64,000 nucleotides of DNA from an uncultured bacterium (GCA_964387845.1 CAYLXA010000008.1:32001-96000), one strand, 5' to 3'; counted from the stretch's first letter, positions 17,567 through 23,684 are shown. The notes: a model not told the origin generated them from the letters alone. A program made the numbers and translations.

Positions 17567-17639
17567 AATCCGGTTTGCATTGAATCCGATTGTGAAATTT
17601 TATAAAATGACACCGGAATTATTGATTGTTAATAGTTGT

Positions 17640-17718
17640 GTCATCCTGAACGAAGTGAAGGATCTAAGTTCGTAGACCCTTCGCTCTGCTCAGGGTGACA
17701 GGAGTTGCTCAGGATGAC
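17640..17718. mobile_element. solo miniature copy (MITE-like) of the GIY-YIG element inverted repeats
   Basis: gtcatcctgaacgaagtgaaggatc + 11 nt + acccttcgctctgctcagggtgac + gctcaggatgac. The IR sequence and the partial terminal duplication match those flanking the GIY-YIG gene at 22509..22888. Confidence 0.6.
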
Positions 17719-21645: not shown

Positions 21646-22518
21646 ATGACTGCCAAACTTTTAGAAGGAAAAATCATAGCCGAAAAGCTGCAGAAGAAAA
21701 TTGCAGCAGAGGTGCGCGATCTGACGTCCAAAACAAAGCAAACGCCCAAAATGGTGGCAATCCGGATTAATGAAGACCAAGCCTCAGAGCTTTATTTGAA
21801 ATCACAGCGGAAAGCCGCGGAGCTTGCCGGCATGAAGCATGAAACGATTACGATTTTGGGTGCGACCGAAAGACAATTAATTCAGGCCATCGAAAAAGCC
21901 AATAAAGACGTATCCATTCATGGCATCATGATTCAAATGCCGCTTCCTCAGGATTTTCATCTCGAAAATATTTTGGATTCCATCGATCACAAGAAAGACA
22001 TCGAAGGCGTCACGAGTTTTAATTTAGGGCAATTGGTTCTCAAGAAAGACAAATTGGTTCCGTGCACGGCGCTTTCCTGCATCACTTTGATTGAAGAGAC
22101 AGGCGAGAAGCTGCGCGGCAAAGAAGCTGTGATCGTGGGCTCCAGCAAAGTCGTTGGGCGCCCGGTTTCGCTTTTACTTTTAGACCGGATGGCAACCGCG
22201 ACGGTTTGTCATATTGCGACTTCAGAAGCCGGGAAGCTTGAATCGCATGTGAAGCGTGCGGATATTTTGGTGGTGGCGGTCGGAAAAGAAAATGTAATTC
22301 CCGGGAAATGGGTCAAAGAAGGCGCGATTGTGATTGATGTCGGGATTAACCGTGTGAACGGAAAAACCGTGGGCGATGTGGAATTTGAAGAAGCAAAATC
22401 CAGAGCCAAATTCATTACGCCGGTCCCGGGCGGCGTGGGCCCAATGACGGTGACGATTTTAATGCACAATTTGGTAACGGCGTACAGGTGGCAGACAGAG
22501 AATGCGTCGTCATTCTGA
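21646..22518 (+). CDS. folD: bifunctional methylenetetrahydrofolate dehydrogenase / methenyl-THF cyclohydrolase FolD
   Basis: Start taken at ATG 21646 (MTAKLLEGKII...). Conserved FolD motifs are present (GxSxxVGxP, PGGVGPMTV). The last ~7 codons and the stop lie inside the element's left IR. Confidence 0.9.
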   Translation: MTAKLLEGKIIAEKLQKKIAAEVRDLTSKTKQTPKMVAIRINEDQASELYLKSQRKAAELAGMKHETITILGATERQLIQAIEKANKDVSIHGIMIQMPLPQDFHLENILDSIDHKKDIEGVTSFNLGQLVLKKDKLVPCTALSCITLIEETGEKLRGKEAVIVGSSKVVGRPVSLLLLDRMATATVCHIATSEAGKLESHVKRADILVVAVGKENVIPGKWVKEGAIVIDVGINRVNGKTVGDVEFEEAKSRAKFITPVPGGVGPMTVTILMHNLVTAYRWQTENASSF

Positions 22519-22888
22519 GCGTAGCGAAGAATCTCTGTTTCGATGAAGAAGGGTTACGTTTATTTGCTTGCGAACAAAGTTAACACTGTAATTTATATCG
22601 GAGTTACAAGCAATCTTGCAAAAAGAATTTGGGAACATAAAAAGAAGCTGGTAGAAGGATTTACAAAGAAATATAACGTAGACAAACTAGTTTATTATGA
22701 AATTTTCGAGTTAGTTGTTGATGCAATAAAAAGAGAAAAGCAAATTAAAGGTTGGGTCAGAAAAAAGAAAGTGGACTTAGTCGAATCACTTAACCCTAAT
22801 TGGAACGATCTATACAAGAACTTAAACGAATAAGATGTACGAGATCCTTCGCTTCGCTCAGGATGACGGGCGAAGGGTTCAGGATGAC
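22509..22888 (+). mobile_element. GIY-YIG mini-element: 25-bp imperfect terminal inverted repeats flanking a GIY-YIG endonuclease gene
   Basis: Left IR is gtcattctgagcgtagcgaagaatc (22509..22533). Right IR is gatccttcgcttcgctcaggatgac (22843..22867), followed by a partial duplicate cgaagggttcaggatgac. The element is inserted exactly between folD and panB. Confidence 0.7.
22543..22833 (+). CDS. GIY-YIG nuclease superfamily protein (96 aa)
   Basis: KGYVYLLANKVNTVIYIGVTSNLAKRIWEHK = GIY-(x10)-YIG with the conserved R and E residues. Confidence 0.85.
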   Translation: MKKGYVYLLANKVNTVIYIGVTSNLAKRIWEHKKKLVEGFTKKYNVDKLVYYEIFELVVDAIKREKQIKGWVRKKKVDLVESLNPNWNDLYKNLNE

Positions 22889-23684
22889 GATGAAAACCTC
22901 AATCCAACACATCCTTAATAAGAAAAAAGCCAAACAGAAAATCACGGCGCTTAGCACCTACGATTTTGCATTTGCGAAGCTCGTCGATCAATCAGGTGCG
23001 GATATTGTTTTGGTCGGCGATTCCGTCGGCATGGTCCAGCTCGGTTACGAATCCACGTTGCTTGTGACTTTGGATGAGATGATTCATCACACGAAGGCGG
23101 TTTCGCGCGCCGTAAAGCGTGCGCTTGTTGTGGCGGATATGCCGTATAAAACTTACGAAACAGCCGTTTCGGCGATTAAATCTGCACGGCGGTTTATTGA
23201 AGATGCCAAAGCTGATGCGGTGAAGTTAGAAGGCGGCGAGAAAGTTGTGAAGCAGGCCAAGGCACTCACACGGCTGGGTATTACAGTCATGGGCCATCTC
23301 GGAATGTTGCCGCAGTCGATTGAGAAGACAGGCGGCTATAAGGTTCAGGGTAAGGACAAAAAGCAAGCCGATCAAATTTTAAAAGATGCAAAAGCACTCG
23401 AAGAAGCCGGAGCATTTTCTATCGTTTTGGAATGCATTCCGTATGAGCTTGCGAAGAAAATCACGGAATCCATAAAAATTCCGACCATCGGAATCGGCGC
23501 CGGGCCTTATTGTGACGGACAAATTTTAGTGCTGCATGATTTACTTGGGTTTAAATCGAGTGTCAGCCCGCGCTTTGTGAGGCGCTACATGGATTTTGAT
23601 GCGCTGGCCAGTAAAGCTCTGGAGCAATTCCGCCATGATGTCGAAACCGCCAAATTTCCGTCTCTAAAAGAGAGTTTTGAGTAA
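22884..23684 (+). CDS. panB: 3-methyl-2-oxobutanoate hydroxymethyltransferase PanB
   Basis: ...ITALSTYDFAFAKL...VGDSVGMV... signature. Both candidate start codons (ATG 22884, ATG 22890) are supplied by the caggatgac motif of the element. Confidence 0.9.
   Translation: MTMKTSIQHILNKKKAKQKITALSTYDFAFAKLVDQSGADIVLVGDSVGMVQLGYESTLLVTLDEMIHHTKAVSRAVKRALVVADMPYKTYETAVSAIKSARRFIEDAKADAVKLEGGEKVVKQAKALTRLGITVMGHLGMLPQSIEKTGGYKVQGKDKKQADQILKDAKALEEAGAFSIVLECIPYELAKKITESIKIPTIGIGAGPYCDGQILVLHDLLGFKSSVSPRFVRRYMDFDALASKALEQFRHDVETAKFPSLKESFE

Follow-up and report, generated by a model that had tools for sequence, protein, structure and literature searches.

Between terC and the BI-1 gene of an uncultured bacterium lies a 79-base inverted repeat (17640-17718 of the window, by which we mean the whole 64-kb stretch of DNA that was analysed), and the locus raises the question of what this repeat is, how it came to lie there and how it is related to the similar repeats that enclose a GIY-YIG nuclease gene elsewhere in the window. 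The initial annotation read it as a MITE-like, gene-less solo copy of the GIY-YIG element, either a deletion derivative of that element or an empty landing site into which the nuclease gene homes. The element is not of a new kind; the system of Ssn nucleases and Ssn-related motifs (SRMs), described by Chenal et al. (2025, Nat Commun 16:2388, PMC11893778), accounts for it. Very probably it is a gene-less inverted pair of SRMs, hairpins of the kind that Ssn nucleases bind on single-stranded DNA and beside which they cut, and this pair inserted recently in the 5' leader of BI-1 and is not a recent derivative of the resident nuclease cassette.

Anatomy of the solo element

TerC and Bax1-I (BI-1) domains were confirmed for the genes that flank the solo copy. 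The stretch 17640-17718 reads GTCATCCTGAACGAAGTGAAGGATC-TAAGTTCGTA-GACCCTTCGCTCTGCTCAGGGTGAC-AGGAGTT-GCTCAGGATGAC, in agreement with the transcription first given, and its anatomy can be followed directly from left to right. The left SRM (17640-17664, plus strand; GTCATCCTGAACGAAGTGAAGGATC) consists of a GTC tag, a 5-bp stem (ATCCT/AGGAT), a tandem G.A, a distal stem (AC/GT) with a GAA loop and a trailing C. It is followed by an inter-arm spacer assigned to no strand (17665-17674; TAAGTTCGTA), the ends of which lengthen the palindrome by TCTA/TAGA and which, with arms of 25 nt, measures 10 nt rather than the 11 nt originally reported. The right SRM (17675-17699, minus strand) reads GTCACCCTGAGCAGAGCGAAGGGTC on its own strand and has the stem ACCCT/AGGGT as against ATCCT/AGGAT on the left, the two arms of the pair therefore being unlike in stem type. 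A 7-nt spacer, AGGAGTT (17700-17706, no strand), then separates the right SRM from a terminal 12-nt half-SRM (17707-17718, minus strand; GCTCAGGATGAC, or GTCATCCTGAGC when read on the minus strand), which stops just before the GNA loop. On the plus strand this half copy can pair with the left arm through the outer stem, and on the minus strand an alternative SRM can be built from it and the 3' half of the right SRM (scan match 17675-17718).

Pattern searches bore out the proposed resemblance, in that the left repeat, the right repeat and the terminal partial duplication of the GIY-YIG element are all reproduced at 17640-17718, and the solo copy is gene-less and of the same repeat family as the ends of that element. 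When the window was searched for the arms with patterns allowing up to three mismatches, matches outside the solo element fell in one place only, around the GIY-YIG ORF at 22543-22833, where both the arms and the half copy recur, and shuffled windows, used as the control, gave none. Two structure-based scans found exactly four such hairpins in the 64-kb window (shuffle means 0 and 0.4). The solo hairpin is also far more stable than shuffled sequence, both as RNA (-32 to -38 kcal/mol, z-scores -4.3 to -7.2) and as DNA (-17 kcal/mol, z-score -4.8).

A nuclease cassette with the same repeats

The other copy forms a cassette between folD and panB (22509-22888). Its left SRM (22509-22533, plus strand) supplies, with its TGA, the stop codon of folD, and its right SRM (22843-22867, minus strand) was recovered by the pattern and the structure scans alike; each arm stands 9 nt from the ssn gene (22543-22833, plus strand), the product of which, an Ssn-family nuclease of 96 aa with a single GIY-YIG domain, presumably reads the SRMs. 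On the 3' side of the right arm the sequence continues with GGGCGAAGG and then a second GTTCAGGATGAC ending at 22888, and so includes a half-SRM (22877-22888, minus strand, where it reads GTCATCCTGAAC) that is part of a 21-nt unit missing from a relative (see below). The genes folD and panB and the cassette between them are packed without spare sequence (22504-22518 and 22877-22892). Insertion of the cassette appears to have given FolD a new tail, ASSF, the last four codons and the stop lying inside or at the edge of the left SRM, and the half-SRM provides a Shine-Dalgarno-like AGGA five bases before the panB ATG, which itself begins one base past the half-SRM.

The model for this nuclease is SsnA of Neisseria meningitidis, a 94-aa, single-domain GIY-YIG protein (Chenal et al. 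2025, PMC11893778). SsnA binds just one strand of its hairpin repeat, the NTS (CGTCATTCCCGCGMAVGCGGGAATCYRG), and does so only in ssDNA, neither RNA nor dsDNA being a substrate, and its cut falls a few nucleotides upstream of the repeat; this ssDNA-only, one-strand, upstream cleavage was found for the SsnA proteins of N. meningitidis, N. elongata, N. wadsworthii and Wolbachia (PMC11893778). The neisserial NTS has the form CGTC-ATTCCCGCG-MAV-CGCGGGAAT-CYRG, in which, for the N. meningitidis enzyme, the GTC before the palindrome controls cutting and the C just after it is the top base for binding (PMC11893778). At least one SRM occurs in 71% of the regions around homologue genes, and 42% of homologues are flanked on both sides (PMC11893778).

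The window protein belongs to this family. It has the Pfam GIY-YIG domain over residues 3-76 (E 8e-18) and no other domain, and with its 96 aa it falls within the family's build of about 94-100 aa, a single GIY-YIG domain and no extra DNA-binding domain. It is 47% identical to the 94-aa N. gonorrhoeae orthologue over 89 residues without a gap (E 1e-30 pairwise, 1e-20 by tblastn), and its Y7, Y18 and E65 align with gonococcal Y6, Y17 and E64, the catalytic residues mutated in the published work, so that both an E value below 1e-10 and the catalytic Tyr/Tyr/Glu, by which SsnA homology was recognised there (PMC11893778), are present. The gonococcal orthologue was found by tblastn in a plasmid collection, in two 2.17-Mb N. 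gonorrhoeae records that are really chromosomes, and was recognised not by annotation but by its length, by Y6/Y17/E64 and by the 12 NTS copies that surround it within 1.5 kb; convergent NTS pairs about 76-81 nt apart were seen around the gene. The window Ssn is moreover 57% identical to a metagenomic homologue with exact NTS copies on both flanks, and at least 4,346 proteins match it at E below 1e-5. NCBIfam gave a sub-threshold match to a group I intron endonuclease model, PADLOC and PHROGs gave weak matches to generic GIY-YIG or homing-endonuclease families, and a PDB sequence search returned no solved close relative. Searches against Pfam, NCBIfam, PADLOC and PHROGs detected no transposase family for the 96-aa protein. 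The named homologues point to Omnitrophota as the apparent lineage of the host.

The single arm as a strand-specific hairpin

The functional unit of these repeats is the single 25-nt strand-specific hairpin and not the terminal inverted repeat of a transposon. When one genome per bacterial species was searched with a degenerate version of the arm (GTCAYYCTGARCRDAGYGAAGRRT), at least 120 loci matched, the 24-nt motif being present in at least 120 species of many phyla. According to the record titles, the matches listed include Nitrospirota, Bacteroidota, Chloroflexota, Acidobacteriota, Saccharibacteria, Gracilibacteria, Omnitrophota, Planctomycetota, Verrucomicrobiota, Fibrobacter and Clostridia as well as alpha-, gamma- and deltaproteobacteria. 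The arms share the consensus hairpin GTC-AYYCT-GA-RC-GNA-GY-GA-AGRRT-C, and covariation within it is observed directly. When one arm per locus was taken from 120 species-level genomes among the matches listed, positions 5/23, 6/22 and 11/17 formed Watson-Crick pairs in 118, 119 and 115 of the 120 arms, where independence predicts 94, 60 and 79 (Fisher p 3e-16, 6e-34 and 8e-20, respectively). The alternatives ATCC/GGAT, ATTC/GAAT, ACCC/GGGT and ACTC/GAGT all occur within single arms, and GAGC...GCGA swaps with GAAC...GTGA.

Across 69 distinct arms, 96.3% of the cells are paired under the structure ...(((((..((...))..))))). and both sides change in six of its seven pairs, the compensatory stem change that is expected of an SRM; none of 500 shuffles reached the observed values, and registers that had been slid were 21-48% paired. 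T2 and C25 never vary in these 69 arms, and conservation of G1 and C3 is 90% or more. All four arms in the window begin with GTC and end with C, the oriented motif of SRMs, and the arms of the cassette are hairpin repeats of the kind (20-50 nt, adjoining ssn, typically on both sides) to which the name was given, the solo arms having the same 25-nt form. Left and right arms of one pair are often unlike in stem type (e.g., a left ATCC with a right GAATGAC), which argues that pairing between the arms is not the conserved feature.

A tandem G.A, set in a Y-GA-R context, forms the internal loop, and the apex is GC-GNA-GC. The apical loop is GNA in 103 of the 120 arms among the matches listed, as the rule for d(GCGNAGC) would have it; this "mini-hairpin DNA" has a melting temperature of 70-76 C and causes polymerases to pause (PMC13037366). 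The structure exists on one strand only, as the complement would carry T.C mismatches. In many copies the distal two-pair stem is swapped for a longer, variable stem-loop (e.g., GTCATTCTGA-GGCC-GTT-GGCC-GAAGAATC), which again suggests a hairpin with a conserved base and a free tip. Nearest-neighbour DNA parameters, which do not model sheared G.A pairs or mini-hairpins, give a single arm -1.6 to -3.7 kcal/mol, no better than shuffled sequence, and wherever one strand carries both arms, the two small hairpins should face competition from the long hairpin between the arms (-17 kcal/mol).

Other folds were considered for the element. A single long hairpin or three-way junction, possibly a ribozyme-like RNA, was dropped because the covariation is intra-arm and paired arms are often unlike, and a hammerhead-like reading failed on core sequences that do not fit and on the lack of an Rfam match. 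Rfam searches of the whole window at gathering thresholds returned nothing, and a permissive search of the region returned only sub-threshold microRNA-precursor models, which are expected since any long hairpin gives them.

A variant outside the published SRM pattern

None of the four window arms fits the published search pattern, HGTCWYN(0-2)YYVSBRHN(0-5)WNVSBRGN(0-2)RNCYNB, which the NTS consensus does fit, because the tandem G.A loop lengthens the stem. As that pattern is a search tool derived from 29 genomes and not a functional definition, we file the element as a variant-type SRM. Among 80 loci picked by Ssn protein similarity alone (L124-L203), 8 fit the published pattern near the gene and 6 fit the window's variant, most of the others carrying a sister variant, GTCATTGCGAG-(variable hairpin)-CGAAGCAATC, which is the commonest in this metagenome sample, hairpins of the classic NTS type being a minority. 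The sister variant (GTCATTGCGAG-CGAAGCAATC) has the GAG...CGAA junction in common with the window's variant and also misses the published pattern. Protein-selected ssn homologues have GTC-tagged hairpins, in several variants, directly on their flanks. With its tandem G.A loop and DNA mini-hairpin, the window's variant is widespread (at least 120 species), and since the published pattern misses it, published SRM counts may be underestimates. Within the window that pattern matches once only, at 22207-22240, in folD coding sequence that forms no hairpin; the match is probably due to chance, and the published pattern would accordingly have false positives.

Presence and absence among relatives

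Both loci differ among close relatives. A relative with a 91%-identical BI-1 has a 73-nt terC/BI-1 spacer and no hairpin, and relatives with 86% and 89% BI-1 identity have unrelated palindromes at the same point. Such palindromes were seen at 2395-2470 of L205, 9895-9975 of L210 and about 45-135 of L209, with none in L204, and one of them reads GGGGACGGTCCTGTAGGGGACAGGCC...GGCCTGTCCC..GGACCGTCCCC. The BI-1 5' leader looks like a hotspot for hairpin elements, or a place that tolerates them. A promoter-like TTGAAT-17-TAAAAT (17580-17608, plus strand), conserved in three relatives, lies upstream of the insertion point, between terC and the element, so that the solo pair falls within the BI-1/cstA transcript, in its 5' leader. 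Judged from these comparisons, the solo pair appears to be a recent insertion that entered the leader after the split from a close relative.

Such a position raises the alternative that the element acts in RNA, as a stem-loop in the BI-1 5' leader or at the 3' end of terC that serves as a terminator, an attenuator or a stabiliser of the mRNA. The region does fold at -37 kcal/mol (z-score -4.3) and is followed by AUUUUAAUU, the element sits between the conserved promoter-like site and the BI-1 ribosome-binding site, and two relatives have unrelated palindromes at the same position. Against this, the conserved pairs are intra-arm and depend on G.A pairs confined to one strand, no terminator was called here by the terminator scan, Rfam gave no match, and the identical motif is found beside ssn genes and in many other, unrelated settings. 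Between terC and BI-1 the closest relative examined lacks a hairpin, so none is required there. A role of the hairpin as terminator of terC, as had been suggested, is unlikely, since the element lies downstream of a promoter-like site, in the BI-1 leader. We therefore regard a primary role in RNA as improbable, although a secondary effect of the element on the transcript is possible.

The ssn cassette is found at the same folD/panB site in the relative L123, the Ssn of which is 91% identical, and in the more distant 86% relative L210 folD and panB overlap directly by ATGA (GAGAAATGAAAA), with no repeat pair. Compared with close relatives, both the solo pair and the cassette would thus be insertions, unless they have been cleanly lost elsewhere. 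As the empty site in L210 has no repeat pair, the cassette seems to have come with its own repeats, and this tells against the proposal that the solo pair is an empty landing site, with the GIY-YIG gene homing into existing repeat pairs by cutting and subsequent repair copying. The GTC tags do point outward in the solo pair just as they do around the gene, and GIY-YIG enzymes include homing endonucleases, the only PHROGs and NCBIfam matches of the window Ssn being weak ones to such families. The homology arms are, however, only 25 nt long and diverged, and as N. meningitidis SsnA does not cut dsDNA (PMC11893778), it would not make the double-strand break that homing needs. We consider homing into such pairs highly improbable.

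The other half of the original proposal, a recent deletion derivative, also finds no support. Between the solo arms and those of the resident cassette 5/25 and 4/25 positions are changed (16-20%), mostly as compensatory pairs, whereas the cassette arms differ from those of the L123 cassette at 1/25 and 0/25, and divergence of this size argues that the solo pair did not recently arise from the resident cassette. At the solo pair there may be an imperfect 10-nt target duplication (TTGTTAATAG / TTTTAATTAG, as against a single TTGTTAAATAG in the empty site), and at the cassette ATG at most, the alignment being ambiguous in both cases. A structure-based scan of 20.7 kb of a syntenic relative found no SRMs.

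Partial duplications upstream of SRMs

The partial duplication at the end of both copies had been taken as a part of one common element. This does not hold, because the L123 cassette lacks it and half copies recur in unrelated phyla. What L123 lacks is exactly 21 nt, TCAGGATGACGGGCGAAGGGT, bounded by an 11-nt direct repeat, from which it follows that the terminal duplication of the window's cassette is a recent indel. More widely, 24 of 253 SRMs have their first 10 nt repeated within the 45 nt upstream, on the same strand, compared with 5 of 253 that have them repeated downstream, and the spacing peaks at 18-24 nt; the count on the opposite strand is equal, reflects neighbouring inverted SRMs and therefore cannot serve as a clean control. 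Examples inspected by eye show a half copy that usually breaks off some 12 nt in, immediately before the GNA loop, and two to four tandem half-SRM units, including the spacer, were seen at L053, L098, L117, L140, L169, L199 and L203. This half-SRM "stutter" is not mentioned by Chenal et al. (PMC11893778). The stutter may be caused by slippage of a polymerase that has paused at the mini-hairpin, or by repair of an Ssn nick, and it may be a footprint of the mechanism.

Distribution of gene-less copies

Among the 120 loci listed, convergent pairs with the GTC tags outward are the commonest arrangement (45, as against 12 divergent and 5 tandem pairs; median gap 32 nt), and an ssn gene lies nearby in only 5 of the 120 motif-selected loci, so that gene-less copies such as the solo pair are the rule. 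The 24-nt motif also occurs in at least 120 putative viral contigs of IMG/VR (L211-L330), which hold 206 SRM-type hairpins; tblastn at E 1e-5 found no ssn gene in these contigs. At L143 (3471-4296) about a dozen SRM-type hairpins (GTCGCCCAGAACGAAGTGAAGGGTC), alternating in orientation and spaced with a period of about 59 or 118 nt, stand close together beside an ssn homologue in an array that resembles the NIME and BIME arrays of Neisseria and enterobacteria.

Some SRMs lie inside apparent ORFs (L054 2764-2870, L075 7195-7218 and L183 232-274). At L054 an SRM pair seems to have inserted in frame after an ...AVILSE motif in an apparent sigma-54 activator gene, at L075 (Fibrobacter) the motif begins about 20 nt past an ATG, and at L183 the upstream ORF reads through an NTS. 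Translated SRMs (VILSEAKDL, HPERSEGS, SLRSAQDD, LRMT) may account for many odd or spurious protein termini in databases.

Logan short-read assemblies of the same and related organisms break inside the palindromes (position 1 of L121 corresponds to 17675 of the window, and L206-L208 likewise break at position 1), and contig SRR15237813_10579 stops at the boundary between spacer and right arm of the solo pair. Since the hairpins fragment metagenome assemblies, they will be under-counted.

Proposed function and mobility

Each 25-nt arm folds alone, and only on the GTCA... strand, into a hairpin: the GTC tag stands at its 5' end, next come the 5-bp stem, the tandem G.A loop and the distal stem of two pairs, which with its GNA triloop forms a mini-hairpin of the d(GCGNAGC) type, and a C trails at the 3' end. 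By analogy with SsnA of N. meningitidis, we propose that the Ssn encoded 4.8 kb away (22543-22833) would bind each hairpin whenever the DNA is single-stranded, be it through replication, repair or single-strand entry into the cell, and would nick a few nucleotides 5' of the GTC tag. With the arms inverted and the GTC tags outward there would be one site per strand, the predicted cuts lying on the outer flanks; if the window Ssn behaves as the meningococcal enzyme does, the cut on the bottom strand would fall in AGGAGTT (17700-17706). The biological role, on the same analogy, may be either restriction of incoming ssDNA or selfish spread. We know of no natural competence in Omnitrophota.

Whether the pairs are themselves mobile is a separate matter. 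SRM pairs and ssn cassettes might be non-autonomous mobile elements, MITE- or REP-like, that are moved or copied through the ssDNA nicks of a hydrolytic GIY-YIG nuclease together with host repair or replication, in which case REP/RAYT and IS200/IS605 would have in them a counterpart without an HUH enzyme, and the solo pair would be a relative of the cassette that lacks the gene but is mobilisable. Relative to close relatives, solo pair and cassette alike appear as insertions, and the 24-nt motif is spread over at least 120 species of many phyla and at least 120 IMG/VR contigs. The layout SRM-gene-SRM resembles an insertion sequence, half-SRM duplications are concentrated close to where cuts are expected, just 5' of SRMs, and the possible 10-nt imperfect target duplication at the solo pair, ambiguous in its alignment, would fit as well. 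Chenal et al. likened NTS-ssnA-NTS to an insertion sequence and to REP/RAYT, as a hypothesis only (PMC11893778).

On the other side, GIY-YIG nucleases hydrolyse DNA and strand transfer is not known for them, and the two sites do not agree in their target duplications (ATG at most at the cassette; possibly 10 nt, ambiguously aligned, at the solo pair). Divergence between solo and cassette arms amounts to 16-20%, many pairs join unlike arms, and there are only two SRM loci in 64 kb and none in the 20.7 kb of the syntenic relative. Mobility of this kind is therefore put forward tentatively, as a possibility that we hold to be rather doubtful. If it were true, the 12-nt half-SRM stutter, cut off exactly at the loop of the mini-hairpin, would be its molecular footprint, and the near-identity of GTCAYYCTGA-RC-GNA-GY-GAAGRRTC across phyla and viral contigs would speak for frequent horizontal transfer.

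The reading of the solo element as a gene-less inverted SRM pair adds three points to the published account (PMC11893778), namely an SRM variant outside the published pattern, apparent insertions relative to close relatives and a recurrent 12-nt half-SRM stutter. Comparison of filled and empty sites for both a cassette and a gene-less pair bears directly on the mobility that the authors had only hypothesised, and the paired motif and 96-aa enzyme are a candidate new specificity for ssDNA-cutting tools.

Comparison with known systems

The description as MITE-like was right in so far as the solo element is short, gene-less, bounded by inverted repeats that it shares with the cassette, apparently inserted and variable in its presence among relatives. 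It departs from a MITE in that the sole associated gene encodes a GIY-YIG nuclease and there is no cognate DDE transposase, its arms are autonomous hairpins and not termini for a transposase to bind, often of different subtypes, and target-site duplications, as far as ambiguous alignments show them, do not agree between solo pair and cassette; as no transposase is involved, the element is not a MITE.

The likeness to REP/BIME-RAYT and to IS200/IS605 is closer in form, with small hairpins, a conserved 5' tag read on ssDNA and an enzyme gene between inverted copies, and, as in REP/RAYT, there are many gene-less singlets and inverted doublets (REPIN-like). Ssn is nevertheless a hydrolytic GIY-YIG enzyme, whereas RAYT and IS200/IS605 use Y1 HUH enzymes with a covalent intermediate and strand joining; the SRM tag is GTC and not the GTAG of REP, which sets the element apart from REP/RAYT; and, unlike in those reader systems, the mobility of SRMs is only hypothesised. 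Our literature searches found nothing on the literal motif, nothing linking GIY-YIG nucleases with REP or MITE elements and no follow-up paper on Ssn.

The dRS3-RS-dRS3 unit of the neisserial intergenic mosaic elements is the nearest counterpart that has a name and, like the solo element, places a short non-coding segment between two inverted copies of an SsnA-type hairpin repeat, about half of dRS3 copies being NTS (PMC1797815). The solo unit is single and has a 10-nt spacer, in contrast to neisserial arrays with RS segments of 50-150 nt, and the repeat sequence differs.

The Ssn/SRM system itself is the best match, with some differences. A tandem G.A loop interrupts the window-type stem, which ends in a GCGNAGC-type mini-hairpin or else in a distal stem that is longer and variable, the apparent host belongs to Omnitrophota and not to Neisseria or Wolbachia, the variant is known from sequence alone, and the 64-kb window has two SRM loci, unlike some Ssn genomes with hundreds of copies. 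In common with the published system are a single-domain GIY-YIG nuclease of about 95 aa with the catalytic Y, Y and E aligned, an ssn gene flanked by inverted hairpin repeats, repeats with a 5' GTC tag, a stem that starts with A/T (ATTC...GAAT or ATCC...GGAT) and a trailing C, and gene-less copies, such as the pair between terC and BI-1, dispersed elsewhere in the genome.
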